A stretch of DNA of 46,456 nt from Thermoproteota archaeon (GCA_030055575.1 JASFYL010000004.1:1-46456); one strand, 5' to 3'; shown: positions 481 through 19,948, numbered from the stretch's first letter. Numbers and translations are program-made. The notes: a model not told the origin generated them from the letters alone.

Positions 481-481
481 G

Positions 482-1126: not shown

Positions 1127-1506
1127 AGACAAATCTTCCGTTAAGCCATGCAAGCAGAGTCCTGATAAAATACGAGTCCATTCCCGTGGAAACTTTAATG
1201 GATGCATAAGCGAGCTGGTGAAGTGGGTGATTACAGGTTATTCTGCGATGTATCTCAAATCAGCTGGGATCACTTGCATAAGTAAGTTCTTGGATAAGAC
1301 GACTGGCTTCATTTTGTGTTGGTAGCGACCATTGTGTGAGGCTCGGGGGCGTTAGAATCCTACTCGACCTCGAACTTCTCTCGACCGAAGTATGGAGTTC
1401 GAAACGCTAGGGATCCCTTGGTTGAAGCTGAATACCCTCTACGAACGAAGGTAGAGATGGCAAGGCACGGTAGGTCAGGGCAGGGCGCGCTGGGCTTGAA
1501 GCGGCG

Positions 1507-3519
1507 CTAAGTCGTCCTCTCGCGGGTAAGGGGGAGGCGGATGGTGAACGTAGTTCTTCCCTCCTCTCCCTTCACTGCCGCGGTCCCCGCGACTTCGGGG
1601 CGGCTCTCGACCTCGACGCTGCCGCCCATCGCCTCTACGAACTTCTTCACGACCGCCAGACCCATGCCCATCCCCCTCGGCTTGCCCGTCACGAAGGGCT
1701 GGAAGAGCTTCTCCCTGACCTCCGGCGGGATCCCCACCCCGGTGTCGGAGACTGATACAGCGTAGCGGTGCCCTCCTTCTTCAACCGCCGCCTCGACCCT
1801 GAGCTGCCCACCACGGGGCATCGCCTGGACGGCGTTAGTAAGGATGTTGACTAGGCACCTTTTCAGGAGGTATGGATCCGTCTTCACACAGCTCAGGGCT
1901 GTTTCAACCGAGACCTGGACATCAACATTTGGCGGGATCGAGACGCTCGAGAGCGCGTCCTTGACCACCTCCTGGATATTGACCGGCTCGTACTGGGGAG
2001 AGACACTCCTCGCGTAGTCGTTGAGGTCGCGCACGATCTTGTCCATGTACTGGATCTGCCTCTGCACCCTACCGTAGATCTCCAAGAGCGTCTGCCGCTC
2101 CCTCTCGTCATTGATCCCGAGCCGGGATATCTCCTCGCGGGTCAGCCAGACCAGGTTTGTCATCGCTTGGAGCGGGTTCCTCAGATCGTGCCCTACCATC
2201 GTGGCTGCCTCGCCTAGTGCAGCCATCCTCTCCGCCTCCCTGAGCCTCTTCGTCCGCTCGACCACGACCTCCTCGAGGGAAGAGACGTAGTTCCAAAGCG
2301 CCTCCCTCGCCAGGACGGTCTCGGTGATGTCAAGGATAATCCCCTGGTAGTGGGTGATCTCCCCAGACGGCGAACGCCTGACCCAAGTGTAGTCCCTCAC
2401 CCACCTCGTTTGCCCGTCCCTCGTTACAATGCGGTAGACCTGCTCGAACTCGACCAGCCCCTTTTTGGAGTACTCCGAGACCTCCGAGGCGACGCGGGCG
2501 AGATCCTCCGGGCTCACTATATCAGCATACTTCAGCCTTCCAGAAGTGAAGTCATCTGGAGAGTACCCGAACTTGGAGATGTTCTCGGTGACATACTCAA
2601 CGGGCCACCCCTCCTCATTCTTCCAAAGGAAGGTCACAGCCGGGCTCCTGTTTATTATGAAGTAGAGCGCCTGCAGGTCGCGCATGGCTCTCTTGAGGCT
2701 CTCTTCGGTTTCCTTCAGCTCGGTGATGTCTACCCCGGTGCTTATGAAGAAGGTCTTCCCGCCGAACTCGACGGACCGGTGGATGTTCATGTAGGTCCTT
2801 CCGGATCGGGAGGTCCACTCGTGCTTTTCGGTCCCAGCTTTGCCCAAAGCCTTGAGGCTGGGGCACCCGTAGCATGGTCTGGAGAGCCCCTTCGAAACCT
2901 CGTAGCACTTCCTGCCCGACGGGTTCTCAAAGGCGATGTTATCCTCAAAGAACCTATTCCAGTAGACAAAATTGAACTTGTCGTCCTTTAAGTAGACATA
3001 TGCGGGCAGCGAGTCAAGCAAGAGATCCTTCAGCCTGAGCTCCCGGAATGTGCTAATTATAAACGATAGATGCTGGGCTGTCAGCCTTGCTAAAGGTACC
3101 GCTTTCAGAGAGAGCTCCTTTGTATGGACTAAGACGACTGATACGGGCTCGCCATCTACGGCAACCCTAGTCAAGGCGGCTTCCGAACTGCCTACATCTC
3201 CCGGGGCGGGGTCTAGCCTAACCAGCTCACCGCCGATGGCGCGGTGGACGGCGTCTCGGGTACTTGGTGCCAAGAGTAGCTCGGCAGGAACGCTGGGCGA
3301 GGAGCAAAGAAGCTCAACCCGGTCGCCATTCCGGACGAAGATAGCGACCCCGAACCTCGGACCAGAGAGGGCGAGGCAGAATCCCTTATACACCTCGACC
3401 TCGTCTAAGCCTGACCGAGGGAGGGCGAGCAGTGTTTCGTTCACCGATATCAGGGCATTCATGAGATCATCGTCCGTAAATCTCTCCCTCCTCGACGGAA
3501 TCGGTCTTCTCATGCCCAT
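1507..3519 (-). CDS. Cytoplasmic multi-PAS sensor histidine kinase
   Basis: H-box GHDLRNPL, N-box NILTNAVQAM, G1 DTGVGIP, F-box LFQPFVTGK, G2 GMGMGL; two PAS/PAC regions; no obvious TM helix. Confidence 0.95.
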   Translation of the reverse strand: MGMRRPIPSRRERFTDDDLMNALISVNETLLALPRSGLDEVEVYKGFCLALSGPRFGVAIFVRNGDRVELLCSSPSVPAELLLAPSTRDAVHRAIGGELVRLDPAPGDVGSSEAALTRVAVDGEPVSVVLVHTKELSLKAVPLARLTAQHLSFIISTFRELRLKDLLLDSLPAYVYLKDDKFNFVYWNRFFEDNIAFENPSGRKCYEVSKGLSRPCYGCPSLKALGKAGTEKHEWTSRSGRTYMNIHRSVEFGGKTFFISTGVDITELKETEESLKRAMRDLQALYFIINRSPAVTFLWKNEEGWPVEYVTENISKFGYSPDDFTSGRLKYADIVSPEDLARVASEVSEYSKKGLVEFEQVYRIVTRDGQTRWVRDYTWVRRSPSGEITHYQGIILDITETVLAREALWNYVSSLEEVVVERTKRLREAERMAALGEAATMVGHDLRNPLQAMTNLVWLTREEISRLGINDERERQTLLEIYGRVQRQIQYMDKIVRDLNDYARSVSPQYEPVNIQEVVKDALSSVSIPPNVDVQVSVETALSCVKTDPYLLKRCLVNILTNAVQAMPRGGQLRVEAAVEEGGHRYAVSVSDTGVGIPPEVREKLFQPFVTGKPRGMGMGLAVVKKFVEAMGGSVEVESRPEVAGTAAVKGEEGRTTFTIRLPLTRERTT

Positions 3520-3623
3520 TATTTACTAGAAATGTCCAGTCATTAGTTCAAGCACAATCGGACGGACTATTCTCCACGCCCCAAGATCCGATTGCCTAAT
3601 AATAGCAGCGCCACGATCGTCAG

Positions 3624-4106
3624 TCAATAGTACATCTCCTCCCGGATCCTTTTTATCCTCTCCTGAGAGTCCCTCTCGATGAGAGCGATTATCTTCTCCT
3701 GTATGTTCCGGATCTCCTGTTTCTGCCTATCCACCTGATCGTTGATCGCCTTGATCAGCTCCTCTGGGTCCACTGGCTTCAGGAGGTAGGCGTCAGCCCC
3801 CATGTTGAGTGCCTGGATTGCGTTCTCTAGCGTCGCGTTCCCCGTGAGGATAATCTTCCTCGTCCTCGGGATCCTCGTCTGGTTGAACTCTCTGAGGAGT
3901 GCCACCCCCGACGAGTCTGGTAACACGATGTCAAGAATGGCTACGTCGTAGTGCCTCCGCTGTATCCGATCCGCTGCCTCGCGTCCAGTGGATGCGGTGT
4001 CGACGTGGTACCCCCTGCTCTCGAGGATCATCTTTAGGGTCTCGAGGAGGGTTGTGTCGTCGTCCACAATAAGCACGTAGATCGAGCCCGGATCCAAGGA
4101 GGGCAC
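3624..4106 (-). CDS. Response regulator, receiver domain plus C-terminal coiled coil, no DNA-binding domain
   Basis: LIVDDD, phospho-acceptor ILDIVLPD, LTG, YLLKP motifs; GTG start. Confidence 0.93.
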   Translation of the reverse strand: MPSLDPGSIYVLIVDDDTTLLETLKMILESRGYHVDTASTGREAADRIQRRHYDVAILDIVLPDSSGVALLREFNQTRIPRTRKIILTGNATLENAIQALNMGADAYLLKPVDPEELIKAINDQVDRQKQEIRNIQEKIIALIERDSQERIKRIREEMYY

Positions 4107-6187: not shown

Positions 6188-6228
6188 GGTCGAGGAGGCA
6201 ACCCTCGGACCGGACGGGTGCTGTGCCC

Positions 6229-6279
6229 GTTCTTCCTTTTTCCCTTTTTATCCTTCATTTCCCTCTTTTGGTACTTTTC
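6229..6279 (+). terminator. Polypyrimidine / oligo-T tract, probable archaeal intrinsic terminator
   Basis: TTCTTCCTTTTTCCCTTTTTATCCTTCATTTCCCTCTTTT about 40 nt after the symporter stop, between convergent genes. Confidence 0.55.
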
Positions 6280-6339
6280 TGGGCCGATCGCTGCAGTCTT
6301 GATCCGGCGCCATCGATTTCCGAACTCGAGGTTCCGGTT

Positions 6340-7392
6340 TCAGAAGGCATGAGCTGGCACGAATTTCTTTGCTATCTCAGAGCAAATCCTGACGGTCTCC
6401 CTCCCCTCCTCGGGCGGGACTGGGGTGCGCCCGCCGCCGATAATAGCGTCGACGAACTGCTTGATGAGAGCCCGGTGCGTCTGGAGCCACCTCTTGCTAC
6501 TCGGTCTCAGCGCGGTGCAGAAGGACTGGCTGGTGAGCTGCCCCCACTGGCTGACCAAGGAGAGGTTCTTGTCGACGACTTTGAGCGTGGGGAGGCGCCT
6601 GGTGATGAGGATCGAGTTGTACATGTCGACATCTACTGCCCCGCTCGTGGCGATGGCCTCCACAGTGTAGTTCCAGCTGCCTCCACCGAAGGAGACCAGG
6701 ATCATGCAACGGGCGTTCCCACCCTGGAGGGCGACCCTGAAGGTGTCGTGGGGTATCGCCAGGTGATCGTTCAATCTGCAGGCCTCTGCGCTCAAGAGGT
6801 CCACCCTTCCCAAGAGCGAAATGGCAAGGTAAATCGGGTGGGGGAAGTTCTCGAGGAAGAAGCCGCCGCCTATGCGGTGCACCCAGTGCTCCGGATCAAG
6901 GTATACGGATTTCCTGAGCTGGTGGGTAATACGAACGTCAAGGACCTCTCCCAACTCTCCTCCGGCGATCATCTTCCGGGCGCGCAGGAAGCACGGGTGG
7001 AACCGCTGGTTGTGCGCCACGCAGAGCATCCTCCCGGACTTGGACGCGGCGCCTATCATCTCGTCGCACTCCTTGAGGGTCGTCGCCATCGGCTTCTCCA
7101 CCATCACGTGGCAGCCCCTCTCGAGCGCGCCGACGGATACCTGGGCATGGGAGTCGGGAGGGGTGCAGATGTGCACCAGATCAGGTTCCTCCCTTACAAT
7201 CATCTCCTCCCAGGAACGGTAGAAGCTCCTAATCCCGAACTTCTTAGAGGCAGACTCGGCCCTTTTAAGATCGGTGTCCGAGACCGCAACGACAGACACC
7301 ATGTCCTTGAGCCGAATCAGGGACGGGAGGTGGGAGGACAGTGCGACGTTTCCGCACCCCACGAGAGCGACCCTTATCTTTGGCATCCTCAT
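6340..7392 (-). CDS. Gfo/Idh/MocA-family NAD(P)-dependent oxidoreductase, likely acting on a sugar
   Basis: VALVGCGNVA Rossmann motif, ICTPPDSH, HVMVEKPM, HNQRF, GGGFFLENFPHPI. Confidence 0.92.
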   Translation of the reverse strand: MRMPKIRVALVGCGNVALSSHLPSLIRLKDMVSVVAVSDTDLKRAESASKKFGIRSFYRSWEEMIVREEPDLVHICTPPDSHAQVSVGALERGCHVMVEKPMATTLKECDEMIGAASKSGRMLCVAHNQRFHPCFLRARKMIAGGELGEVLDVRITHQLRKSVYLDPEHWVHRIGGGFFLENFPHPIYLAISLLGRVDLLSAEACRLNDHLAIPHDTFRVALQGGNARCMILVSFGGGSWNYTVEAIATSGAVDVDMYNSILITRRLPTLKVVDKNLSLVSQWGQLTSQSFCTALRPSSKRWLQTHRALIKQFVDAIIGGGRTPVPPEEGRETVRICSEIAKKFVPAHAF

Positions 7393-7462
7393 CCATCTAT
7401 CTTTTTATGTCAACGGGTAACAGAGATATAATGGTTGCCGTTGCCCACGAAGAGGTCTTGAA

Positions 7463-8422
7463 ATGATCGTTGATCCTTACTTGCAGAAGACGCTCAAGGA
7501 GAGGGCGATCTTCTCGCTGGACCGGACAGTGCTTCCGATGCTCCCGGAGCTTTACGAGGGGGTCGTGATACCGGTCAGGAGGTGGATCTACGACCTCGCC
7601 GTGAGGGGGAGGGTGAACCGTCTGGTCTCGGAGAGGCTGGCCGAGTGGCCCTCCGTATTCACCAACATCGAGATCGAGACCGTGAACAGGTGCAACAACG
7701 ACTGCCCATTCTGCCCGGCAAACAGAGGCGCGGACAGGAGGGCCCATGCCGTGATGGGCAGACGGCTGTTCACGTCGATCGTGAGGCAGCTGGGGGAGAT
7801 CGGCTTCAGGGGGAACCTAGCGCTTTACTCTAACAACGAGCCCCTCTTGGACCCCAGGATCGCGGAGCTGGCAAGGGAGGCCAGGGGGGCGGTGCCCGGA
7901 TCTTTCATCTACATCTTCACGAACGGAACTCTACTCACACCTGGGCTCTACACGGAGCTGATGGGATCACTGGACCTGATCGTGATAAACAACTACAGCG
8001 ACGACCTCAAGCTGCTCCCCCAGGTGAGGGAGATCGAGAGGGCCTCGAGGAGCGACCCCGGGCGCTACGGGAGGACCAAGATCGTGCTCCGGAGGAAAAG
8101 CGAGTTCAGGACGAACAGGGCCGGGCAGTCCCCTAACAGGAGGCGCCGCTTGGGGCTTACGTCGGCTTGCATCTATCCCTTCTCCCAGATGGTGGTCAGG
8201 CCCGATGGGAAACTGAGCCTCTGCTGCAACGACGCGTGGGGGGCGACCACCATGGGAGATCTCTCCGAGACCGCGATACTCGATTGCTGGTTCGGGGAGA
8301 GGTACAAAGAAGCGAGGAGGAAGATCATCAGGGGGAGGAAGTGCCTCAGCCCGTGCAGGGAATGCGACAACCTGACCACAGGGCACATCGAGGAGGTGCC
8401 TTTGAAGCTCGGCTTCAATTAA
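7463..8422 (+). CDS. Radical SAM protein with twitch/SPASM auxiliary Fe-S domain
   Basis: CNNDCPFC (Cx3Cx2C), NEPLL, FTNG; C-terminal C-x17-C-x43-C-x2-C including RPDGKLSLCC. Confidence 0.93.
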   Translation: MIVDPYLQKTLKERAIFSLDRTVLPMLPELYEGVVIPVRRWIYDLAVRGRVNRLVSERLAEWPSVFTNIEIETVNRCNNDCPFCPANRGADRRAHAVMGRRLFTSIVRQLGEIGFRGNLALYSNNEPLLDPRIAELAREARGAVPGSFIYIFTNGTLLTPGLYTELMGSLDLIVINNYSDDLKLLPQVREIERASRSDPGRYGRTKIVLRRKSEFRTNRAGQSPNRRRRLGLTSACIYPFSQMVVRPDGKLSLCCNDAWGATTMGDLSETAILDCWFGERYKEARRKIIRGRKCLSPCRECDNLTTGHIEEVPLKLGFN

Positions 8423-9076
8423 ATAGGGGCATGAACGGGAGACTCAGCCGTAAGACCGGCAGGGAATTGCTCGATTCTTGACCGGGAACCTACTGAATGC
8501 AGAGCAGATTTATCCAAGTTCCTTCTGAAGGATTTTGCTGTAATTACTCGACCCGACGTGCCTGGGGCTTGAGACGGACCCGCAGCGCCTCGAGTACTCT
8601 AGAGCGCACTTGAGGAGACCCCTCTTCAAGGATCCGAGGCGGCGCAGCGAGCCGTTCCTGCTCCCCCCATTCTCAGGGCAAAGGGACTGGATGTAACCGA
8701 GGGGCACGATGAAATGCACATGAACCGCTTGTTTACTAGTCCCATATTGTTACGATTTCTGAACTAAACTAATGTCAGATTGTTCTTTATGATCATGTGA
8801 TTTGTTCCTGGTGTTACAGAAGAAGGGGGCGATCCAAGTCGCAACCCCTATGGAAGGATTAAGCTGAGGCGCATACTTATTGAAACTTCCAGTAGCAAAC
8901 CAGGCGTAGAAGGATTGATGGAGAAAGACACCCCAATTAGGTCAAGCTGAGGGCTGCGCCCGTTGAGAATGCATGGGCAGCACAACTAACGCGGGAACGG
9001 GTCTCAATTAATACACGTAAGTCTCTAAATAGATAGTGCTATATTCTACTCTGCGTCCGAATAGGTAGAGAATCAG

Positions 9077-9517
9077 ATGGTCGAGAGCATTACAGTAGTG
9101 GTTGCTGGTGGGGACGACATGTCCCCTGCCATCACTCTCGGTGAGCCGCTCGAATTAGAGGCGGTAGAACCAGACCAGATCAGGCAGGGGGATGTGATAG
9201 TGTTCAGGAGGTACGTCTTGATAGCCCACAGGGTGCTCTGGTCCGCTCGGATCCACGGTAGAACGTACTTCATCACAAGGGGCGACCAGTGCCCTTACAT
9301 AGATTCACCGGTGGACTCCCGGATCCTGGTCGGTAGGGCGAAGCGAAAGTGGCGGTGGGTGCAGACCTCTCTACGGAGCCGTATTCTTTTCTCGGTTGCC
9401 ATACTGTGGTACATCGTCGGTACAAAATTGATCAGGGGAAGGGCATTCAGGGTCCTTAATGCAAATGTGAGGAGGGTGGCAAGCATGTGCCTCCCAAAAC
9501 CGCCTGCAGATCGTTGA
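9077..9517 (+). CDS. S24/S26 signal-peptidase-like protein with atypical active site
   Basis: GGDDMSPAITLG (aligns to GxSMxP...G), GDVIVF, IAHRV, ITRGD, ILVGRA; hydrophobic C-terminal segment. Confidence 0.8.
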   Translation: MVESITVVVAGGDDMSPAITLGEPLELEAVEPDQIRQGDVIVFRRYVLIAHRVLWSARIHGRTYFITRGDQCPYIDSPVDSRILVGRAKRKWRWVQTSLRSRILFSVAILWYIVGTKLIRGRAFRVLNANVRRVASMCLPKPPADR

Positions 9518-9518
9518 A

Positions 9519-10598
9519 TCAAAGTATAGAGGAGTATATGTCGGCGAGCCTCCTGACGTGGTCTCGGATGGAGAAGAGTTCCACCGCCCGCCTCCTCGCC
9601 CGTTCTCCCATCCTGCGCCGCTGGGATTCGTCATCTATCAGCCTTGCTATCGCCTCAGCTAGGGCTTTGGGATCCCCCGGCTCGACCAGTATTCCAGTCT
9701 CGCCGTCTTCCACGATCTCTGGTAGCGCGCCGACCTTTGTTGCTACCACCGGCAGACCGCACGACATCGCCTCGACAGCCCCCAGACCGAATGGTTCCTG
9801 CCAGACGGAGGGGAAGACGCACAGGTCTGCGTCCCTGTAAAGGTCGGGCATGCGGCGGTAGGAAGGCACCTCTCTTATGGTCACGGAACTCAGCCTTTTT
9901 GCGGCAGTCCTGACCCTGGCGTCCGAGATTGCCTGCCAATCGACGGGCTCTGAGGTCTTGTATAGGAACGCGGAGCCTGCAATCACCCCTTCGAATTCTA
10001 TCCCCGCCCTCTCGAGCTGCATAAAGGCATCAAGGAGGACGAATATGCCCTTGTGGTGTATCCAAGCCCCGGTGAATACTACGCGGGGGCGCGGCGCATG
10101 AATCCTAACGGGGGGGGAAAAGAGGTCAGTGTCTATCCCGTTGTATAGCAGCAAACAGCGATCCTCCGGAATCGAGGGGTTCTTCTCCAGAAAGTCCTCC
10201 CTTATGAACTTGGAGCAGCATATGAAGAAACATCTCCCGTACTTCTCTCTTGCGAGGTCGTAGTAAGGCAGGGTAGTGGAGTTGTGGATATGGAGGATCA
10301 CCCTTGGGTGCCTCGACACCAGCGCGAGCATCGGAGCGTTTACAGAGTGCTGGATGTCATAGCCAGAGGTCCTTTCGCAGAACCAGAGGTAGTATTCCCT
10401 GCCTGTTTTTCCTGCGGGTTGGGAGGGGCACATCGCCTCTACCCTTGGGTGTTGCCCCACTGAGCCGAGTACGTAGTACCTCGCGTCGACGCCGAGGTCT
10501 AAGAGGTGATCGAGCTCAAGGAAGGTCACCCTCTCTGCTCCGCCGCAAATCTCAGGATCCACCACCACGAGGGGGCTGTTGAGGAATGCGACCCTCAC
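9519..10598 (-). CDS. Glycosyltransferase family 4 (GT-B)
   Basis: GGAERV, NGIDTDLF, HKG, EPFGLGAVE (Ex7E), AMSCGLPVVAT; GTG start overlaps the kinase stop. Confidence 0.93.
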   Translation of the reverse strand: MRVAFLNSPLVVVDPEICGGAERVTFLELDHLLDLGVDARYYVLGSVGQHPRVEAMCPSQPAGKTGREYYLWFCERTSGYDIQHSVNAPMLALVSRHPRVILHIHNSTTLPYYDLAREKYGRCFFICCSKFIREDFLEKNPSIPEDRCLLLYNGIDTDLFSPPVRIHAPRPRVVFTGAWIHHKGIFVLLDAFMQLERAGIEFEGVIAGSAFLYKTSEPVDWQAISDARVRTAAKRLSSVTIREVPSYRRMPDLYRDADLCVFPSVWQEPFGLGAVEAMSCGLPVVATKVGALPEIVEDGETGILVEPGDPKALAEAIARLIDDESQRRRMGERARRRAVELFSIRDHVRRLADIYSSIL

Positions 10599-11560
10599 CG
10601 CAACGCACCCTGTACTGCCTCGTAAAGTGAACGGTTCCCCCTGCCCACATAGAGGTCGAAGCAGGGTACTGATTCCGCGATCGAGGAGAATGCGGCGAAC
10701 GCCGCCCTAGCGTATTCCTGTGACGGCTCGAATATGCTCCCGGACTCGAGCAGAAAGTTCCTGACTAGCCTCGGGACGGTTTTGGCTGGGGTGGAAGGTC
10801 TGCACTCGCTCGACTCCGAGTTCCAGACGCTGGTGTTGAAAATAGCGACCGGCTTCACTGCTTCTTTCTGCACGGGGAAGTACTCCCCCAAGTTCACCCA
10901 TGAACCATCTGCGCCCGGATCGTACCTGCTCCTCTCGAAGGCTTTGCGCAGGGAAGGGAACCTCCTAACGGTCCCTGTGTGGATCATGCTCCGCAGGTAG
11001 AATGGGAAGACGAGGCTTTCCTTGAGGAGGACAACGTCGTCCGAGACCATCCTGTACCCGTTCTCCAACATTGTTAGCAGGCAGGTCGTCTTTCCAGACC
11101 CAGACACGCCGGTGAATATGAGGGCGCCTCCCCCAGGTCCCTGTGAGACCGAGGAACCGTGAATCCAGTGGAACCCCCTCCTCTCGAGCGCCTTCACGAC
11201 GAGGTGCTTTGAGAGGTAGCGAACCTTTTCGAAGATGCGCGCGCTCGGAGAGGCCCATATGGATACCTCGAGGCTCTCCGGAGAGGTGCAGATCAGGTAG
11301 TTACCAGGGTCGTGGATGTAGATCTTTCCCCGGTGGGCAAAGACGCTCGAAGAGGGGAAGACGGTAGAGACGCGAACAGCGCACTCTGGGAGGCGATCTT
11401 GGACAGGGTCCTCCTTTCGCATCACCAAAGACGCGTCTGACCGGAAGGATCCCGAGCCCGCGTGCTCCCGAAACTCCTCCATAAGATCCGCGGCGAGTTC
11501 GTCCATCTCGATTCTAAAGTAAACGGCTGCCCCATGAATGCTGCAAGTAAATTCTTTCAT
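10595..11560 (-). CDS. HprK-related P-loop kinase (lasso-peptide-kinase-like family)
   Basis: IHGSSV, Walker A GVSGSGKTT, VSDDVVLL; start moved to ATG 11560 because the longer ORF runs through the AT-rich divergent promoter. Confidence 0.85.
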   Translation of the reverse strand: MKEFTCSIHGAAVYFRIEMDELAADLMEEFREHAGSGSFRSDASLVMRKEDPVQDRLPECAVRVSTVFPSSSVFAHRGKIYIHDPGNYLICTSPESLEVSIWASPSARIFEKVRYLSKHLVVKALERRGFHWIHGSSVSQGPGGGALIFTGVSGSGKTTCLLTMLENGYRMVSDDVVLLKESLVFPFYLRSMIHTGTVRRFPSLRKAFERSRYDPGADGSWVNLGEYFPVQKEAVKPVAIFNTSVWNSESSECRPSTPAKTVPRLVRNFLLESGSIFEPSQEYARAAFAAFSSIAESVPCFDLYVGRGNRSLYEAVQGALR

Positions 11561-11565
11561 GGCTG

Positions 11566-11634
11566 TTCGTTTAAAAGAAGGATTGATCGGTATATATCTG
11601 CTTTTAACGGTCTGCAGAGGGGCAGGTTTTATAT
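11566..11634. promoter_or_regulatory. AT-rich divergent promoter between the kinase and PqqD genes
   Basis: TTTAAAA, TATATAT, TTTTAAC and TTTTATAT TATA-like boxes in a roughly 95 bp gap. Confidence 0.5.
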
Positions 11635-11656
11635 CGGTGCGGATTTCTTTCAAAAA

Positions 11657-11941
11657 ATGGTGAGCAGAGTGGGCAATCTTCTAGACCTCAAGCCATCGAA
11701 GAGCCCTGAGGTAGCCGAGAAGATAGGGTCCGTGACGATGCTCTTCGACGCCTCGTCTGGGAGGCTGTTTGAGCTAAACGAAACAGGAAAGACGGCTTGG
11801 ACCCTCCTCGACGGGAAGAGGAGTGTCAGGGAGGTGGCTGAGGCGATAGCAGCCGAGTATGGGATGGACCCGTCCCAGGTCGCTGAGGACCTGGCGAGGT
11901 TCGTAAAGGAGATGCTCGAGTTTAACCTCCTCAGAGCCTAA
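11657..11941 (+). CDS. Standalone PqqD-family RiPP recognition element (RRE), 94 aa
   Basis: LFDASSGRLFELNETGKTAWTLLDGKRSVREVAEAIAAEYGMD...DLARFVKEMLEFNLL matches the PqqD pattern; ATG at 11657 is in frame with ORF 11462..11941. Confidence 0.9.
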   Translation: MVSRVGNLLDLKPSKSPEVAEKIGSVTMLFDASSGRLFELNETGKTAWTLLDGKRSVREVAEAIAAEYGMDPSQVAEDLARFVKEMLEFNLLRA

Positions 11942-13169
11942 CGTGCTCCCGCTGAGGGGCAGACCGAAGCAGGTAGAAAGTCACATTCATCAAGTACCTT
12001 GAGAGCTCGCGATAGCACTTAAGCGCCGCCGGTGTGCCAGCCTCTCTAACCACGGCTGTTGATATGAACTCGACGTTAAGCTTGACCCTCTCCGGGAAGC
12101 TCCTAAAGGCGTCGTTTATCGTCAGCAACTCGGGGAATGGAGGTAGCCTCCTCTGCATGTAAATCGGGCAACCCCTGCACCAACCCCCGGGGCAGCGCGA
12201 GACCCCGCACACCGAGGAGAATCTGACCGGGAAGCTCACCTTCATCTCATCTGGGATCCTCATGGGGATTTCCCTGAGGGCAGAGGGGACCCCCCTTCCC
12301 AAGGACTCTAGTAGCCATCGGTACAGCGAGACCGGAAGGGCGATGACCCCCCACCAAGACGGGCTGCTGAGCCTTCTGCTAATCGCGCCCCAATCTAGGT
12401 TGGGGAATCTGGCAGATATAGCGTCGATGTCGCAGAGATCCCTGAGCTTCACCTCCCCGTCCCTGAAGGCGTTCATCGCAGTCACGAGGACCATAGACTC
12501 GGGAGGCACCATCCCGAACCTGATCCCACCTGCCTCGACCCTGGAGGCTGACTCCCACAGGCCGTCTATAGCAGGGTATCCAAAGAGGTGCGAGACGCCG
12601 GGAAGGCGGGAGTGGAGCTCTACGCTGAGCTCCAACCTATTCCTTCCTTCCTTCACCATCTTGACATGGTAGGCATCGCTCCCCGACACCAGCTTCCTGT
12701 AGCCTAGCCTCTCAAGCAGATCTCTAGCCCTCGCCAGCTCTTTCCGGTTCGGGATCAGGAGATCCATGTCGGAGTAGTCCCGCATAACCCCGGGCGGGTA
12801 AACCACCGAGTCAAGAAGAACCCCCTTGAAAGGAAGAAATGAAACGCCTGCCCTTGCGAGCGCCTTCATTGCCTTCTTGTACTCAGATCTCCTTGCTAAT
12901 TGGGCAGAGAGCATTTGCAGGTACGCGGGTCGGTAAGACTTCAGGTAGGAGTCATTGTCTTGCCTTGAAAGGACGGATTGGAGGCGTTCGTAGACCTGCA
13001 AGAAGATGCGGTTCCTATGGGCAAGGCTCAGAAGTGCACCCCAATCCAAGCCCCCCGAGAGGTCGCCCTCAACATTTGCTGCGCGCCCTTCCCAACTCAA
13101 GGCGGGCAAGAGGCTTATGAGGATCCTCTGCTCCCTAACCGAGATATCATTCAACCCACTTAACCACAA
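11931..13169 (-). CDS. Nucleotidyltransferase family protein (NTP_transf_5-like)
   Basis: LDWGALLSLAHRNRI, FKGVLL..VVYP...RDYSDMDLLI, VELH, LCDI, LDW motifs; start uncertain (TTG 13169 or 13154). Confidence 0.85.
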   Translation of the reverse strand: MWLSGLNDISVREQRILISLLPALSWEGRAANVEGDLSGGLDWGALLSLAHRNRIFLQVYERLQSVLSRQDNDSYLKSYRPAYLQMLSAQLARRSEYKKAMKALARAGVSFLPFKGVLLDSVVYPPGVMRDYSDMDLLIPNRKELARARDLLERLGYRKLVSGSDAYHVKMVKEGRNRLELSVELHSRLPGVSHLFGYPAIDGLWESASRVEAGGIRFGMVPPESMVLVTAMNAFRDGEVKLRDLCDIDAISARFPNLDWGAISRRLSSPSWWGVIALPVSLYRWLLESLGRGVPSALREIPMRIPDEMKVSFPVRFSSVCGVSRCPGGWCRGCPIYMQRRLPPFPELLTINDAFRSFPERVKLNVEFISTAVVREAGTPAALKCYRELSRYLMNVTFYLLRSAPQREHVRL

Positions 13170-13233
13170 CCAAATAAAAGAGAGGGAGGATAAATGGGTT
13201 TGGATCGGTTTGGATAGGAGTTGGCTGGTTACT

Positions 13234-14382
13234 TTGAGGGTAGCCGCAACAGTGCCTTGGAGCCTCCAGTGGGAGCATACTGGCCTCTCGAAGCGGCTAA
13301 TGGGGCAGATCTCTGCTATCGCCTCATCCGGAGTAGAGATAGAGCTATTCTCACATGGTGAGGAAGCTGACTATGGGGCGTTCAGTAACAGGAGGGTGCG
13401 GGCAACGGTCTTCGAGGGGGAAGATCCGAACCTCCCTCTACTGAACTCGTTGAGCTTCAGCCTGGCCTTCTCGGAGGTCGCGAAGGGGCTCGAATGTGAC
13501 TTGCTCCACTGCTTCAACACTACTGCGCTCTTCTTGGATGAAGAGGAATATCTCCTCCAGATGCTCAACCCCACCTCGGCTTTCGTGAAGGAGATGCTGC
13601 AGGGGGAGTACCCCGAGGAAGGGATGTATGCGAACAAGATGCGTTCCTATGAGGTTATGTCCTCGATGGAGAGGAGGGAGGGCGCAAGGGCAGAGCTCGT
13701 CATTGTCTCCTCGGAACTTGCCAAGCGCAACTTAGTAAGGCTCTACGGGATCCCCGAGAGTAAAATCAGAGTCATCCCTACCGGGGTCTCGCCGTCCGAG
13801 GTAGACCAGAGCTACGAGAAGAAGGAGGAGGGGCTGAAGGTCGTACTGTATCCGAACAGGGTCTCGGTGATGAAGGGCTTTAGGTACATGGCCGAGGCGA
13901 TGTTGGAGATCAGAAAGTCGTTCCCTTCCGCAGTCATGATCGTGTTGGGCAGGATAGACAAGTTCGATTATGGGGTTGTATCCCCCCATTTGAAGGTGCT
14001 GAGGGACGCCGGGTGCGTTTCGATAGGTGGGTTCGTGGACAGGGCGCGGTTGAGAGAGTACTACAAGATGGCGGACGTGGTGGTCGTTCCCTCACTTTGC
14101 GACGACCTCAGCCTCTCACTCCTCGAGGCCGTAGCCATGTCGACCCCTGTAGTGGCGACGGAAAACACAGGTTTCCCAGAGGTTGACGAGGTCGGGGTGA
14201 AGGTCAGACCCAAGGACGGGGGCGAGATCGCCGATGCGGTGATCAGTTTGTTGTCGGACAGGCGGATCTACAGAGAGAAGAGGGAGGGCGCAAAGGCGGT
14301 GATAGGGAGGTACTTGTGGCCCAGTATAGGGAAGAGGTACCTCGAGGCATACAGAGAGGTTCAACCCAGCTCAAGCAGATAG
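13234..14382 (+). CDS. Glycosyltransferase family 4 (GT-B)
   Basis: KIRVIPTGV, MKG, DVVVVPS, DDLSLSLLEA (Dx7E variant), TPVVAT; likely TTG start at 13234, since the longer ORF overlaps the opposite-strand gene. Confidence 0.88.
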   Translation: MRVAATVPWSLQWEHTGLSKRLMGQISAIASSGVEIELFSHGEEADYGAFSNRRVRATVFEGEDPNLPLLNSLSFSLAFSEVAKGLECDLLHCFNTTALFLDEEEYLLQMLNPTSAFVKEMLQGEYPEEGMYANKMRSYEVMSSMERREGARAELVIVSSELAKRNLVRLYGIPESKIRVIPTGVSPSEVDQSYEKKEEGLKVVLYPNRVSVMKGFRYMAEAMLEIRKSFPSAVMIVLGRIDKFDYGVVSPHLKVLRDAGCVSIGGFVDRARLREYYKMADVVVVPSLCDDLSLSLLEAVAMSTPVVATENTGFPEVDEVGVKVRPKDGGEIADAVISLLSDRRIYREKREGAKAVIGRYLWPSIGKRYLEAYREVQPSSSR

Positions 14383-14511
14383 ACACCGCGTGTTCCGACC
14401 TGCTCATCCCAAATCTCCTTCACCGCGGGAGGAGAGTACACCTTCGGGCTTACTGACATATGCTAGAATTTGGTTTCGAGAGGATATATGCTTTTCCAGA
14501 ACATGCTTGAT

Positions 14512-16665
14512 TCAGCAGCCGCCGTATGGGATGAGGGCATGCACTGAAAATCTGTTGAACTCGACTAAGGGCTCGGAGATCATCTTTTCCACCGGGGCAG
14601 GGGTCTCGTAAGATCTCATCAGGACCACGTAGGCTTGACGCGAAGGGTCAAGGCTATCGTAGAATGATCTTATCGACTCTCCGGTTTCATTGAGGTTGGT
14701 CATTGCCCTGAGGTCCCTGTCCGAGATCGTGGTTATCCCTCTAGCGAACTGCCACCGGACGGTCGGATTCGAAGGGTCAAGAGAACGGGAGCGTGAATAG
14801 TCCGGATAGAGCACTAGGGAATCCTGAGGCGTGTTCTCGTTCAGCCACCGGAGCAGAGCCACTAGGTCTTCTGGGACTTTAGGATCATTAACAGCATAAT
14901 GGTAGTCCAGGTACAGCGTGGAGGTGAAAGAGAGCGCGACGAGTATGGCAACGCCCGCCCTGACGGGCAGCCTGAGGATCCTTGCGGGGGAGCGTTCGGG
15001 GAGCCTCTTCCACAGCCAGAGGACTCCATATGCTCCCAAGATGGAGAGGGCTGGGTGAAGGAAGGCGTTCATCCGGGTGCCCCACCAGAGGCTCCCCAGC
15101 AGCAAAGCTAGCCCTGCCCACGCTGCCGCTATCTTGAACCAGCCCTCCTTCCAGGAAACGACCGCTGCTCCGATCAGCGCCAAGAAACCCAAGATCCCGT
15201 ATCTGGTGATGTAAAGGTACAAGGGGAAGGTAAATTCCACAGAAACCTCGGGGGCGGATGGGGAGCCGAGGAGGTAAGGCAGCCCAGAGGCGTATGCAGA
15301 CGCAAGCATGATTATAAACAGTAGTTTCACGTAGGCGGAGGCTGCAGGGAGCAAAACACGGCTGGACATCCGAGCGCGCAGGCGAGAGAAAGCGACTGCG
15401 AGAATTGTGAGACCCGCAACCCCACCAAGGGCAAGGAGTGCAAACCTGGTGCTGATAGCAAAGAAGGGGATCTTCTCCACAAGAAGCGATGTGTTCAGCC
15501 ACCCAGTCATCAACTCGATGCCAAGGAACACTGCTGCAGAGGAGGCTGCTAGGAGAAACAGGCTGAAGACACCCTTTCTCGTCGGAGAGGCGAACAGGAA
15601 TATTAGTAGAAAAACGGGCGCTAAGAAGCCAGGCAGCATATGTATAAGGAAGGAGGAGAGGAAGAGCACTGCTGATGCGAAGATAGCGGAAAGGCTTTGC
15701 CTTATCCGGGTGGAACCTAGCGCGACGATGAATATAGCGAATGAGGAGAATACTTGGACTACAGATATCATCTTGTAGGTGAGGTCTATCGCGCCCCATG
15801 CAAATGGCATGAAATACATGTCCTGTGTGATGTTGCTTACAGTCCAGAAACTGAGTTTCGGGAAAATGAAAGTGTGTATGAAATAGCCGAGTCCCGCGCT
15901 GAAGGAGTATAACAGGGATGCCAGGACTGCTGAGGAGTCTGTCATCTTGAAGACACGCTTCGCCATCGCGTAGAAAACGAGCACGTTCAAGCCGGAGAGC
16001 AGGAAGAAGAGCGCGTTGGCATTGACTACAGGGATCCCCATAGAAACGGAATACCCAGCAATCATAAATCCGAAAAATACAGGGTAGTATGATCTGTGGA
16101 AAAAATTCCAAACATCGACGCCATTTATGAGTTCAACAGCAGGAGTTATCGCCACCCACTGATCCCCAGGGATCAGGTAAAGGTGCCTGGCGAAGACTAG
16201 ACCCGAGATGGCAGAAGAAGAGGCGGCAGCTAATATCAGTGCGCAGTGGGGGGGCGAGATCTTCGGAGCTGGCGGATGTTCCTTGAAACGCGTCGAGAGT
16301 GCGAACATCAGGGACGTAATTACGATGGCGAGGACAGGGAACGTCGAAATGGAACCGAAGAGGTAGTTGGAAAAAAAACCAAAGAGCCCATTGAACGCGA
16401 AGGAAAGGCAGACCGAAAGAGGGATCGCGCAACCCCACCCCACCCTCTGGTCTAGTCCCGTGATCCTCATGAAAAGACCCCCGGGCAGATAAGTGAGACC
16501 AGCTAGCCAGACCAACGAGCGGAGGTACTGAAGGGGACCTATTTCGCTCCATAGGGATATTGGCGCCACGGAGGCGGGGATCAATAGGGTGACCGCCATA
16601 GAGGATATCAGCGCGAAAACCGCCCAGTTCCATGGATCCTTCTTAGGCATGCCGCCGTCCTTCAT
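14512..16665 (-). CDS. Large polytopic membrane protein of glycosylation loci (GT-C-like or glycan polymerase/transferase-like)
   Basis: 717 aa, many TM helices, GDQW and YYP loop motifs, C-terminal soluble WLNENTP.DS.VL segment typical of GT-C-like archaeal proteins; co-oriented with GT genes. Confidence 0.6.
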   Translation of the reverse strand: MKDGGMPKKDPWNWAVFALISSMAVTLLIPASVAPISLWSEIGPLQYLRSLVWLAGLTYLPGGLFMRITGLDQRVGWGCAIPLSVCLSFAFNGLFGFFSNYLFGSISTFPVLAIVITSLMFALSTRFKEHPPAPKISPPHCALILAAASSSAISGLVFARHLYLIPGDQWVAITPAVELINGVDVWNFFHRSYYPVFFGFMIAGYSVSMGIPVVNANALFFLLSGLNVLVFYAMAKRVFKMTDSSAVLASLLYSFSAGLGYFIHTFIFPKLSFWTVSNITQDMYFMPFAWGAIDLTYKMISVVQVFSSFAIFIVALGSTRIRQSLSAIFASAVLFLSSFLIHMLPGFLAPVFLLIFLFASPTRKGVFSLFLLAASSAAVFLGIELMTGWLNTSLLVEKIPFFAISTRFALLALGGVAGLTILAVAFSRLRARMSSRVLLPAASAYVKLLFIIMLASAYASGLPYLLGSPSAPEVSVEFTFPLYLYITRYGILGFLALIGAAVVSWKEGWFKIAAAWAGLALLLGSLWWGTRMNAFLHPALSILGAYGVLWLWKRLPERSPARILRLPVRAGVAILVALSFTSTLYLDYHYAVNDPKVPEDLVALLRWLNENTPQDSLVLYPDYSRSRSLDPSNPTVRWQFARGITTISDRDLRAMTNLNETGESIRSFYDSLDPSRQAYVVLMRSYETPAPVEKMISEPLVEFNRFSVHALIPYGGC

Positions 16666-16697
16666 GTCCTGAATTGTAAGTTGGATTCTTAAAAAAG

Positions 16698-17819
16698 TTA
16701 ACTAGGACTGCACGATCTAATCTTACTGTAAAGATCCAAAACCCTCATGACTATAATGGAGATCTCATAGTTTTTCCTAATGTGGAACGCTGCCCTCTCG
16801 CCCATACGCCTGAGTAGACACCTGTCTCCAAGTAGACCGCTTATAGCCATCCCCAAGGCGCGGTGGTCTCCCGGCGGAACCAGGATGCCAGTCTCTCCGC
16901 TACGTACAACAGAACTTATTCCCGGGATGTCGGATCCGACCACCGGGTTCCCGCAAGACATGGCCTCGAGGAGTGAGAGGGGCATCCCCTCGCTAAAGGA
17001 GGGCATGACGAAGAGGGTGGATGAGCGGAGTATCCGAGCAACTTCGCAGCGGCTCACCGCACCAGTGAACACGAAGCGTTCATACACGCCTAAGCGTTCA
17101 GCCATTTCTTCGATTCTTTGGCGGAGCGGCCCGTCGCCGACCAGCATAAACCTGATATTCCTCGAGGTCTTGATTACCTCGACCGCAGCCCTCAGCAAGG
17201 TCGGTAAGCCCTTCTCCTCGACGAACCTTCCGGTCCACACTATGGTGTCTGAGTCTTTATCTCTGGGCCCAGGGCGGAATAATGTTGTATCGACCCCGTT
17301 GGGGATTATGGAGATCTTCTCCCATGGGCACCCAAGCCGGTTTGCTTCGACCGCGTCGCTCTCGGTGAGACACCTCACGGCTGAGGCCGCCCTGAAGACT
17401 AATCTGGAGAGCGTGTTCAGGTAGGCGAACTGGGCGAGGTTCAACGCCCCTTTTCTTGGGGCTTTGATCCCGTTCACGGTCACTACCGAAGGTATCCCCA
17501 TCCGGCGAGCGTAGAGTACAGCCTGGAGAGAAGTCAGGAAAAGGTGGGATTGGCAGTCCACTACTTCCGCCTGCGAATATTCAAAGGCACTCCCAACGTG
17601 CTTCAAGAGAGGGAAGATCGTTCCGTGAATGGGCAAGAGGTTTACCCCTGGCAGCTCTATCAGATCGATTCCGGGCTCGACCAGAGAGATCCTAGTTTCG
17701 CCCAAACCCTTAACCCAGGTCATGACAAAGGGTTGCTCCCCTCTCATCAGCAGTAGTCTGGGAAGTTCGAATGTCACGTCTCTATAATGCCAGTAGGGGT
17801 GCACCAACAGGATCTTCAA
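16698..17819 (-). CDS. Glycosyltransferase family 4 (GT-B)
   Basis: KILLVHP start (TTG 17819), IPNGVDTTLF, GRFVEEKG, EGMPLSLLEAMSCG (Ex7E). Confidence 0.93.
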   Translation of the reverse strand: MKILLVHPYWHYRDVTFELPRLLLMRGEQPFVMTWVKGLGETRISLVEPGIDLIELPGVNLLPIHGTIFPLLKHVGSAFEYSQAEVVDCQSHLFLTSLQAVLYARRMGIPSVVTVNGIKAPRKGALNLAQFAYLNTLSRLVFRAASAVRCLTESDAVEANRLGCPWEKISIIPNGVDTTLFRPGPRDKDSDTIVWTGRFVEEKGLPTLLRAAVEVIKTSRNIRFMLVGDGPLRQRIEEMAERLGVYERFVFTGAVSRCEVARILRSSTLFVMPSFSEGMPLSLLEAMSCGNPVVGSDIPGISSVVRSGETGILVPPGDHRALGMAISGLLGDRCLLRRMGERAAFHIRKNYEISIIVMRVLDLYSKIRSCSPS

Positions 17820-17832
17820 AGCGCATTCCCCA

Positions 17833-18876
17833 TCAGAGGGCGGAATCGAGCATATCCAGCAGCGGTTTGTATGCCTTCTCCAACAGATTCTCCCCGGCAA
17901 ACCTTTTCACATTGCTCACAAAACGAGCATATCTCTCACATATTCCATTTATCGATTCTAGAACCCCTTCAGGTTTGGTCACCACCCCGATGCCGGCGTG
18001 TGCCACCTGACCAGTCCAACCGTCTCCTATAGCGATTATTGGCTGGAGTAGGGAGGCATGGAGATAAATCCTGGTAGGGCAACTAGCACGGTACCTTACA
18101 AGCAATCCGATGGGAACCTGCCTCAGCTCCCCTATAGCGTCTCCGAGCGTCGGGTAGGAGTACCACCTGACGTGCCGCAGCCTTCTTTTCAGTCTTTTTG
18201 CCAATCGACCTTGGTCGTAGGACCACAACTCAATGGAGTCGATGCGCCTACAGACCTCAAGAAATGCCTGTTCCTCTTCCTTAAACTGGAGCTTCCCCGA
18301 ACTTACCAACGACACCCCCTTAATCATCCTGTTCAGAGACTCCTCTTCGCTCATGACCACCTTGTCTAGCCCCGGAGGTACAACACAGGAATCAATGCCC
18401 ATAGAGAGCAACTTCTCCCTGAGCCCCTGCGATACGGCAATGACGCCCTCTGTGCTCTCGGTCAACGAGCGCAGCATCCTCGTATAACCATCGGAGGGCG
18501 TGCCGCCGAGCCACTCTGGAGTGAGGTCTTCGATGCTTAAGAAGGTAGCAACCCCTTTGGACGTCAAGTATCGGGCTGCACCGGCGGTTACATCTGTTAT
18601 AAGGATGGCTGCGTCAGGTCTAGCTTGCATCACTTGCTTGGCGATCCGCCTGCCTATCAGGTCCCAAACCGGCTTCTGACCGATTATTATTGGACCGAGG
18701 ATCCGGTAGATACCTCTGAACGCTTTCTCCTGATCTCCTTTGAGAATCCTCACATCATACCGAGACCGGAGTGCTTCGAGCATCATGTCGACCCGGTATC
18801 TAATACCAGGAGAGGAGTGATAGGTTGGCGTGAAGACTACCACTTTAGGTATTGATCCGTTCCGCACAAGGATCAC
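17833..18876 (-). CDS. Divergent GT-B-fold glycosyltransferase-like protein
   Basis: VVVFTPT..SPGIRYR, SIEDL, VIAVS..L, VPPG, PTRIY...LQPII; GTG start at 18876 overlapping the GT2 stop, or GTG 18867 behind a GGAGGTGA SD. Confidence 0.6.
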   Translation of the reverse strand: MILVRNGSIPKVVVFTPTYHSSPGIRYRVDMMLEALRSRYDVRILKGDQEKAFRGIYRILGPIIIGQKPVWDLIGRRIAKQVMQARPDAAILITDVTAGAARYLTSKGVATFLSIEDLTPEWLGGTPSDGYTRMLRSLTESTEGVIAVSQGLREKLLSMGIDSCVVPPGLDKVVMSEEESLNRMIKGVSLVSSGKLQFKEEEQAFLEVCRRIDSIELWSYDQGRLAKRLKRRLRHVRWYSYPTLGDAIGELRQVPIGLLVRYRASCPTRIYLHASLLQPIIAIGDGWTGQVAHAGIGVVTKPEGVLESINGICERYARFVSNVKRFAGENLLEKAYKPLLDMLDSAL

Positions 18877-19820
18877 CTCCGGTCTTGAGAGGTCACGGTC
18901 AACGTCACCCACAGTATCATCATTAATGAGAAAAAGAGGAATGCGAGAAGCGTTGATCCAACCGCGATCAGTGCCAAATTGATTGGGACATAGCCGTTTT
19001 GTGAGTAGCTTTGGACGCACCAGATGCCGAATGTGAATCCGATTAGCATAAAGATGGCTGCGGGTATCCCGTAAATCTTAGTCGGGTGCCTTATCGAAAG
19101 CAGCTTCAAAGTGTTCAGAACCACCGACATGCCCTGTGTCAGAGATCTTATATTGGATTGCTTCTCAGGATAGGTTATACGGACAGGGACCTCAGAAATC
19201 CTCAAACCTTTTCGACTTGAATCCAACAGGATTTCAGTACTCGCACTCATCCCGTGCTCGGACACCATAATGCAATCAAGTGCCTTTCTCCCGTACGCCC
19301 TGAAACCAGACTGCGTATCCGTAATTTTTTTGTCAGAGGAGATGTTCACAACGGCGTTGATGAGTTTTATCCCGTACTTCTTAGGGTACGGGACATGACC
19401 GTTCCCGAGGAACCTCGAACCTATGACAAGGTCGGCCTCGTTTTTGATTATCGGAGAGACAAGGTCGGGTATATAGCGAGGCTCGTGCTGGGCGTCGGCG
19501 TCGAGGGTCACCAGCACATCTGCCCCGATTTCGACGGCGACCCTAAATAACGACGATATGGCTGCACCGTACCCCATGTTAGTTGGGTTGCTTATCACAA
19601 CAGCTCCCAGGGCCTCCGCGATCTCTGCCGTCATGTCGGTTGACCCGTCATCGCATACGAAAATAGCGTCCACGAAGGGTTTCACTTTCAGTATTACTGA
19701 GGCGATAGTCTTCTCCTCGTTGTGGGCAGGGATACCTGCCACCAAGAATTTGCCTCCTGTTGAGTGTTTGTCAACCAAGGATGCTGACCCGCTTGATCCG
19801 GTCATCCGATTTTTCTCCAC
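18873..19820 (-). CDS. Glycosyltransferase family 2, DPM1/polyprenol-phosphate glycosyltransferase-like, with 2 C-terminal TM helices
   Basis: IPAHNEE, DDGSTD, NMGYGAA, LDADAQH, DLVIGSRF, DTQSGFRAY. Confidence 0.92.
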   Translation of the reverse strand: MEKNRMTGSSGSASLVDKHSTGGKFLVAGIPAHNEEKTIASVILKVKPFVDAIFVCDDGSTDMTAEIAEALGAVVISNPTNMGYGAAISSLFRVAVEIGADVLVTLDADAQHEPRYIPDLVSPIIKNEADLVIGSRFLGNGHVPYPKKYGIKLINAVVNISSDKKITDTQSGFRAYGRKALDCIMVSEHGMSASTEILLDSSRKGLRISEVPVRITYPEKQSNIRSLTQGMSVVLNTLKLLSIRHPTKIYGIPAAIFMLIGFTFGIWCVQSYSQNGYVPINLALIAVGSTLLAFLFFSLMMILWVTLTVTSQDRR

Positions 19821-19948
19821 GAATTATTCTTAATCTCCTCGGTCAGATAAATTATATTAAGCAAACCTGGCTACCAAAAATTCGGTAGCTCATGATATTA
19901 CAATCCAAATGCTTTGAAAAATGAATGGCGATGTTTTGAAAAGTGAAA

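Follow-up and report, generated by a model that had tools for sequence, protein, structure and literature searches.

The locus and its precursor peptide

The window analysed here is a 46,456 nt contig (C46; JASFYL010000004.1) from the genome of a Thermoproteota archaeon (GCA_030055575.1; 1.36 Mb in 97 contigs, 88% complete), which encodes McrA and belongs to a lineage of methane-metabolising archaea. Between an SSF symporter gene and a VWA gene it carries a genomic island (6188..19948) of 13 genes plus a small precursor open-reading frame (ORF), and within this island lies the cassette that is our subject: a stand-alone PqqD-type recognition element (RRE) of the kind that serves peptides made by the ribosome and modified after translation (RiPPs), an HprK-like kinase, an NTP_transf_5 nucleotidyltransferase-fold enzyme, an S26 peptidase-like protein, a radical S-adenosylmethionine (rSAM) enzyme and two GT4-type glycosyltransferases (GTs). 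ORF listing and family scans (judged by the curated Pfam and NCBIfam scores, with matches under them marked here as sub-threshold) confirmed all of these genes and the flanking genes named in an original prediction for this DNA. That prediction had seen no precursor, which proved wrong: a conserved ORF of 32 codons (MSVSPKVYSPPAVKEIWDEQVGTRGVYLLELG) lies on the minus strand at 14361..14459.

This ORF was singled out when every short frame of the window was compared with those of three related loci, namely L010 (in genome G014, of a different genus), L012 (from a metagenome) and L013/L014, two contigs which probably represent the same population since they gave identical values. Counts over four loci refer to the window, L010, L012 and L014, which were chosen as independent and long enough to judge; L015 and L016 are short contigs with a divergent PqqD-kinase pair. 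The peptide ORF converges on the 3′ end of the gene for GT4b, which it adjoins in all four loci and overlaps by 22 nt in the window. Across the four copies 20 of 32 columns are invariant, the stop codon follows immediately after Gly in each, and the last 25 residues (KY to the terminal Gly) are 74–85% identical, compared with 34–59% for the enzymes of the same loci. Pairwise differences over the last 26 codons fall 23, 16 and 91 times on codon positions 1, 2 and 3 (91 of 130 at the third), with 72 synonymous against 30 non-synonymous codon differences, and an ATATAT box, which would be compatible with an archaeal TATA box, stands upstream of the gene in every locus. The peptide ORF is a real coding gene. 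It is present as a single copy in the genome and matched no family in Pfam or NCBIfam.

A profile search brought in 21 further homologues of 39–60 amino acids (aa), all at E ≤ 4e-10 (among 34 candidates). In the resulting 23-row alignment, two rows of which are the same peptide with different starts, 12 columns are invariant (Y8, P11, W17, D18, E19, G22, R24, G25, Y27, L28, L29 and E30) and 8 are nearly so. The predicted core, RGVYLLELG, is invariant, with the Tyr as its only hydroxyl residue and no Ser, whilst the position just before the predicted cut (−1) is Thr in 11 rows and Met in 12. The peptide gene also shows that statements that cassettes of this sort have no precursor can merely reflect unannotated genes of 30–40 codons.

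Conservation and mobility of the cassette

The peptide, PqqD, kinase, GT4a, S26-like, GT4b and NTP_transf_5 genes occur together in four of four loci, in identical order in three of them and rearranged in L013/L014. L010 and L012 share with the window the order and orientation GT2, GT4c, membrane protein, peptide, GT4b, NTP_transf_5, PqqD, kinase, GT4a, S26-like, rSAM, oxidoreductase, at 37–59% identity. Grouping these genes as one functional unit, as had been proposed, thus stands up to a check of co-occurrence, the same set recurring in every locus rather than by chance. Outside the window GT4a (47–56% identical in L010, L012 and L013/L014) always follows directly after the kinase gene, and GT4b is 48–59% identical in the same loci; the kinase stop and GT4a start share 4 nt in the window and in L014, and the corresponding tblastn matches abut in L010 and L012. 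The suggested link to glycosylation is likewise upheld by the two GT4 genes in the conserved core and by this overlap with the kinase gene.

Each of the four loci also has an rSAM gene and a Gfo/Idh/MocA oxidoreductase gene. Orthologues of the window rSAM are 53% identical in L010 and L012, but the rSAM/SPASM protein of L014 is non-orthologous, with PqqE as its best solved relative (5.5e-7) and only local identity of 26–29% to the window enzyme. Counterparts of the oxidoreductase are 42% identical in L012, partial in L010 and distant (26%) in L013/L014. The partial copy in L010 (15269..15769) aligns only to residues 173–339 of the window protein, and may be truncated or replaced. Judged by gene content, seven genes, that of the peptide among them, form the strictly conserved core, with an rSAM and an oxidoreductase always there but replaceable.

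The divergent PqqD-kinase pair is present in all six related loci with sequence there, the short L015 and L016 included, and four peptide clusters have a longest contig equal in length to that of kinase clusters (174554, 98702, 92662 and 6807). The distribution is sparse: counting the window's own genome each time, 2 of 33 genomes in the order and 2 of 401 sampled from the phylum carry the kinase family, which was found nowhere in the genomes of 8 congeners. Searching genome contigs with the single kinase sequence gave no relatives, and a search of them with the full-length kinase alignment saturated on the Walker-A pattern, returning one distant Chloroflexota match (L007) without any cassette gene. 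A metagenome match (L017) was discarded, as it spanned only 12 residues at E 7e-4.

The SSF, VWA, CDF and P-type ATPase genes that frame the island in the window are contiguous in five congeners (G016, G017, G019, G020 and G022), with an SSF-to-ATPase distance of ~2.4 kb in G022 compared with 15.8 kb in the window. The 13.7 kb of extra DNA (6188–19948), missing at the same site in these five genomes, corresponds exactly to the 13-gene block and the peptide gene. Its GC content is 0.50–0.565, against 0.596–0.611 in the flanks, and neither direct nor inverted terminal repeats were detected at its borders.

Enzymes of the cassette

The RRE gene (11657..11941, plus strand) is divergent from the kinase gene and encodes a stand-alone PqqD-type protein (PF05402, 4.3e-16, 59.4 bits), whose best NCBIfam match is lasso_PqqD_Strm at 39.5 bits, under the cut-off of 70. 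The sole PqqD match and the sole NTP_transf_5 match of the genome both fall in the cassette. The P-loop kinase (10595..11560, minus strand; 321 aa from Met32 of the ORF) was recognised as HprK-like by its family motifs and by a sub-threshold match to Hpr_kinase_C (21.2 bits, cut-off 33.3). Its family comprises 20 proteins (among 6374 candidates), all of which retain H-G, GxSGSGKTT (the P-loop) and DD, and the family profile matches the HPr kinase 1ko7 (PDB) at 1.6e-4. The NTP_transf_5 enzyme (11931..13154, minus strand; PF14907, 8.8e-38, 130.7 bits), with its start placed at ORF residue 6 after the Atlas record, has G...DxD and E..H invariant in the four loci. The motifs of both kinase and nucleotidyltransferase are intact. 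Near the C-terminus of the latter (residues 321–334), outside the Pfam match, a C-x4-C-x4-C-x2-C pattern is also invariant in the four loci, and could be a metal site.

Between the rSAM and GT4a genes lies that of the S26-like protein (9077..9517, plus strand), which has no Pfam match, but resembles archaeal-type signal peptidase I at sub-threshold level (TIGR02228, 1.9e-11, 44.1 bits, cut-off 51.85) and human SEC11A (E 2.4e-4). The SEC11A alignment sets D14 on the nucleophile Ser, with H51 and D70 conserved, and the nucleophile site reads D-M-S-P in all four loci. Among the best 150 of 6243 relatives this position is Ser in 123, Asp in 6, Cys in 4 and Phe in 1, with no motif in 16; Cys and Asp variants include P0046 and P0050, and the clade seems tolerant of nucleophile swaps. 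We regard the protein as a candidate leader peptidase or adaptor.

Of the two core glycosyltransferases, GT4a (9519..10598, minus strand) matches Glycos_transf_1 at 3.1e-35, and GT4b (13210..14382, plus strand) carries Pfam GT4 domains and has its start inferred from the sequence at a TTG codon (13210). The rSAM enzyme (7463..8422, plus strand; Radical_SAM 6.1e-9, SPASM 8.9e-11) has the twitch enzyme BtrN (4M7T) as its best solved relative, aligned over full length (E 2.8e-16, residues 62–306) with CxxxCxxC and the twitch auxiliary-cluster cysteines in register, so the twitch label given to it earlier was right. BtrN is the 2-deoxy-scyllo-inosamine dehydrogenase of butirosin synthesis. The window enzyme is a probable dehydrogenase, for which oxidation of a sugar-like alcohol offers the nearest model.

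A fold model of the RRE and the peptide

Co-folding the RRE with a candidate peptide, a check which the original prediction had called for, placed the leader motif on the RRE. The model of PqqD with the peptide (alignments of 5 and 22 rows, respectively) scored 0.63, against 0.02 for the best of three controls; of solved complexes, 116 of 157 reach the mark that this score passes, as do 2 of 215 mismatched pairs. Between runs at least 77% of contacts agree, with a partner pLDDT (predicted local distance difference test) of at least 57. In the modelled interface, peptide residues 5–17, which hold the YxxPxV stretch, lie on PqqD residues 36–44 and 64–91. The model supports binding of the YxxPxV motif by the RRE. 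Since the pair is like RRE-leader complexes already solved (lasso B1-leader, LppB-LppA), passing the mark may reflect this likeness rather than prove binding.

Other genes of the island and its surroundings

At the left end of the island lies the Gfo/Idh/MocA sugar-type oxidoreductase gene (6340..7392, minus strand; PF01408, 7.5e-30). A non-coding gap of 654 nt (8423..9076) separates the rSAM and S26-like genes and is peculiar to this genome, the same interval being ~100 nt in L010 and L012; we found in it no conserved ORF, no Rfam match and no second copy in the genome or the related loci. Beyond the peptide gene follows a polytopic membrane protein of 717 aa (14512..16665, minus strand) to which no Pfam family could be assigned. 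In the Atlas its model comes close to PMT_2/GT39, DUF6541 and STT3 clusters (TM 0.5–0.69), structural neighbours that offer GT-C-like identity as a lead. In L010 and L012 its orthologues lie directly upstream of that for the peptide, in longer frames of 1011 aa (L010 5415–8450) and 1124 aa (L012 3028–6402), where the extra length may lie at one or both ends. Three island genes outside the conserved core complete the block on the minus strand, all identified by Pfam: GT4c (16698..17900), a GT4-N-domain protein (17833..19020) and GT2 (18873..19820). GT4c and GT2 are present in L010 and L012, and neither they nor the GT-C-like gene were seen within the 19.5 kb of L013/L014.

Just upstream of the symporter gene that borders the island, the window encodes a PAS/HisKA/HATPase histidine kinase and a receiver-only response regulator (1507–4106). 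Some 9 kb past the island (28586–32841), a pair of ABC-2 type transporter genes precedes that of an 804-aa protein, which carries Ig-like domains (Big_13, Big_7 and TIG) and may be a surface protein. In L014 the cassette has an NRPS-like (nonribosomal peptide synthetase-like) A-T-TE protein and a phosphopantetheinyl transferase ~5 kb away (442–3944), and an IS5-type transposase gene directly beside the PqqD gene. A search of sequencing runs for the window listed no RNA run and three DNA runs with small shares (0.06–0.10).

A proposed RRE-guided pathway and its alternatives

The original prediction had taken this type of pathway to be undescribed. However, a family of Bacillota with the same gene logic, the linear polyphosphorylated peptides (LPPs), was published in 2026 (Popov et al., Nat Commun; PMC13381572). 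As described in the passages of that paper on which we draw here and below, LPP gene sets combine an RRE with an HprK-like kinase, an NTP_transf_5 protein and a signal peptidase I of archaeal type, with no cyclase; the kinase LppK polyphosphorylates Ser3 of the core, and the peptidase LppS cuts after T-1 only with LppB presenting the leader, and requires S29, H68 and D93 (PMC13381572). In pseudomycoidin, a passage of a second source reports that PsmN adds a hexose to the phospho-Ser (PMC9266682).

We consider it probable, with some reserve, that the cassette directs a cyclase-less, RRE-guided maturation of its own 32-residue precursor, in the manner of LPPs and phosphorylated lasso peptides, with a sugar-tailoring set fused to it. 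Both the product and each step of the chemistry are inferred from the LPP and pseudomycoidin precedents. The PqqD RRE would capture the leader by its KxYxPPx[V/I] motif and hand the peptide to the HprK-like kinase, which would phosphorylate either Tyr27 (of GVY) or a sugar already on the peptide, as this Tyr is the only invariant hydroxyl downstream of the RRE motif. The NTP_transf_5 enzyme and the two GT4s would then assemble a glycan or phosphoglycan on the peptide, with the BtrN-like rSAM and the Gfo/Idh/MocA oxidoreductase oxidising a sugar or cyclitol unit. Finally, the S26-like protein would cut, or aid cutting, after the Thr or Met 16 residues from the Tyr, freeing the core RGVYLLELG. 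The whole set moves as the 13.7 kb island, together with the GT-C-like membrane enzyme and three more GTs.

Several points weigh against this proposal. Over the 23 rows the predicted core has neither Ser nor Thr as an invariant residue, and LppK is reported to have accepted neither S3T nor S3Y (PMC13381572), which would leave a Tyr target without precedent in this type of kinase. With Asp where LppS needs Ser29, the S26-like protein may not be a peptidase, and with a non-orthologous rSAM in L014 and an oxidoreductase of only 26% identity, a role of these two in the core pathway is uncertain. No ABC exporter gene was found within the island or in the DNA examined of L010, L012 and L014, and the nearest ABC genes in the window (28586–30357) are of ABC-2 type. 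A near-invariant core is also unusual for an antibiotic-type RiPP.

A bolder version of the proposal, which we hold to be rather unlikely, is that the product is a Tyr-linked phosphoglycopeptide: the kinase would have switched from Ser to the invariant Tyr, the nucleotidyltransferase and GT4s would build an oxidised sugar chain on the phosphate, the Asp-variant S26-like protein would remove the leader, and the product would serve as handle or primer for a GT-C-dependent surface glycan. If true, this would be the first RiPP-type pathway of its lineage in Archaea, and would link LPP-type peptides functionally to polysaccharide assembly.

We know of no precedent for a peptide as a glycan primer of this sort. 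It is doubtful, but conceivable, that the peptide is more generally a carrier or primer, on which a phosphoglycan is built in the cytoplasm and then passed to, or extended by, the GT-C-like enzyme and the other GTs of the island to give a cell-surface glycoconjugate. The cassette was inherited as one island with the GT-C-like protein, two GT4-type genes and GT2, the GT-C-like gene stands directly upstream of the peptide gene in three of four loci, and an invariant core suits a structural or handle role; the LPP clusters of Bacillota are also reported from capsular polysaccharide loci (PMC13381572). However, L013/L014 have the module without the GT-C-like gene, GT4c or GT2 (within 19.5 kb), and the Atlas structural matches that name the GT-C-like protein are leads only.

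Mycofactocin suggests another reading, as its precursor MftA ends in GVY and the finished cofactor is glycosylated. A cofactor or small molecule derived from the peptide, in the way of mycofactocin or pyrroloquinoline quinone (PQQ), would need the RRE and an rSAM enzyme to act on the invariant GVY, a peptidase to free the fragment, and the oxidoreductase and GTs to finish it. All these parts are present (GVY, RRE, rSAM/SPASM, peptidase-like protein, oxidoreductase and GTs), and the core is invariant although the enzymes are only 34–59% identical, yet the Tyr is not C-terminal, the window rSAM is BtrN-like and the rSAMs are non-orthologous between loci, whilst the kinase and nucleotidyltransferase have no role in such pathways. 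Mycofactocin itself was rejected, GVY being followed by LLELG and neither MftB nor MftC appearing among the NCBIfam matches. The kinase family occurs in only two of 33 genomes of the order, which argues against a core cofactor, and we judge this origin of the product distinctly improbable.

The first reading of the locus was as a glycosylation island in which the RRE, kinase and nucleotidyltransferase act on a surface protein or lipid-linked glycan, leaving the small ORF irrelevant. A GT-rich neighbourhood would fit this, as would the statement of the LPP authors, in the part of their paper cited here, that they could not identify a final product (PMC13381572). However, nothing in the locus is better conserved than the small ORF, which carries YxxPxV, set on the RRE by the fold model, and co-occurs with the kinase in all four loci. 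Given a dedicated precursor, there is no need for a surface protein as substrate, and that claim of the original prediction found no support; the island reading now appears very unlikely.

Lasso peptides form a 7–9-membered ring with a tail. That the cassette belongs to an ordinary lasso pathway, with cyclase and B2 protease encoded elsewhere, can be dismissed as next to incredible. In its favour, lasso B1 models come nearest to the RRE (though under their thresholds), YxxP is present in the leader, and a Thr stands near the predicted cut in 11 of 23 rows. Against it, a lasso-type cut would leave GVYLLELG, whose 8 residues (with Glu as the sixth) are too few for ring plus tail, and the 88%-complete genome has no match to Transglut_core3 (PF13471, the B2 protease) and matches Asn_synthase (PF00733) only in open frames of 268–338 aa that have no N-terminal domain and no PqqD gene nearby (no cyclase search was made in G014, which is 96% complete). 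The earlier view that lasso cyclase and B2 protease are missing thus holds to the extent that a genome of 88% completeness can show, and a lasso biosynthetic gene cluster (BGC) was rejected on both counts, the absent enzymes and the shortness of the C-terminal stretch.

Comparison with known systems

The clusters for paeninodin and pseudomycoidin share with the cassette an RRE, an HprK-like kinase and an NTP_transf_5-type enzyme, and phosphorylation followed by hexose addition is their documented chemistry in the passage cited (PMC9266682); they differ from it in having a cyclase, a B2 protease and a C-terminal Ser, and the core here is too short for a lasso. BtrN aligns with the rSAM from end to end, the CxxxCxxC and twitch cysteines included, but at low identity, and it belongs to an aminoglycoside cluster rather than a peptide cassette. 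SynChlorMet and HPr-rel-A, two in-silico systems of NCBIfam, likewise pair a PqqD-family protein with an HprK-related or rSAM partner. Scores set the cassette apart from both (ScmD 32.8 against a cut-off of 100, HprK_rel_A 25.8 against 200, PqqD_rel_X 18.6 against 35), the values for HPr-rel-A lying so far under the curated cut-offs that membership was rejected. The likeness to SynChlorMet cassettes drawn in the original prediction does not extend to membership either, with ScmD at 32.8 bits and no ScmC, ScmE or ScmF among the NCBIfam matches.

The LPP BGCs of Bacillota come closest. A literature search found the term linear polyphosphorylated peptide confined to PMC13381572 and no archaeal version of the system (subscription journals and closed supplements lay outside the search). 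In the passages cited, its authors describe LPPs as restricted to Bacillota, and the archaeal signal peptidases that appear in passages of Supplementary Data 1 have no RRE beside them, whilst NTP_transf_5 and PqqD are the Pfam families tallied around LPP peptidases in Supplementary Data 2 (PMC13381572). An archaeal relative could make several of the open points of LPP biology (the product, its role and the constant tie to polysaccharide loci) testable, and the system is a compact test of NTP_transf_5 function, of the kinase target and of why such peptides travel with glycan genes. This testability rests on the GTs in the core, the nine invariant core residues, the lack of the usual Ser acceptor and the Asp at the nucleophile position. 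The cassette also adds a RiPP-like pathway to the little-studied methane-metabolising archaea.

As far as the cited passages describe LPP systems, the two share a discrete PqqD RRE as well as an HprK-like kinase, an NTP_transf_5 protein and a signal peptidase I-like protein, with no cyclase. The S26-like gene is adjacent to PqqD in four of four loci, as a signal peptidase-like gene is to a discrete RRE in LPP clusters, and both systems have a GT-rich or polysaccharide setting, LPP clusters often lying within capsular polysaccharide loci, and a patchy, island-like distribution (PMC13381572). LPP precursors carry YxxPxVLxHQxIxFETxxS (PMC13381572), of which the precursor here retains YxxPx[V/I], the spacing from Tyr at position 1 to Thr or Met at position 16, and a hydrophobic residue at −3. 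It lacks the HQxIxFET part, however, matching this leader at none of the L, HQ, I and FE positions, and in 12 of the 23 rows Met takes the place of the T. Where LppA has Ser3, at position 19, the precursor here has Val, and its predicted core is without Ser. An archaeon, rather than a member of the Bacillota, is the host, and the precursor has 32–60 aa and an invariant 9-residue C-terminus, compared with 35–200 aa and variable C-termini. Asp replaces the catalytic Ser (S29 of LppS) in all four loci, with the His and Asp kept. Two GT4s belong to the conserved core, and one of them overlaps the kinase gene; the cassette also has an rSAM and a Gfo/Idh/MocA oxidoreductase, and the MsbA-like exporter of the LPP core set was not seen here. 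The cassette is a distinct archaeal variant of the LPP kind, and its differences touch the chemistry that defines that family.

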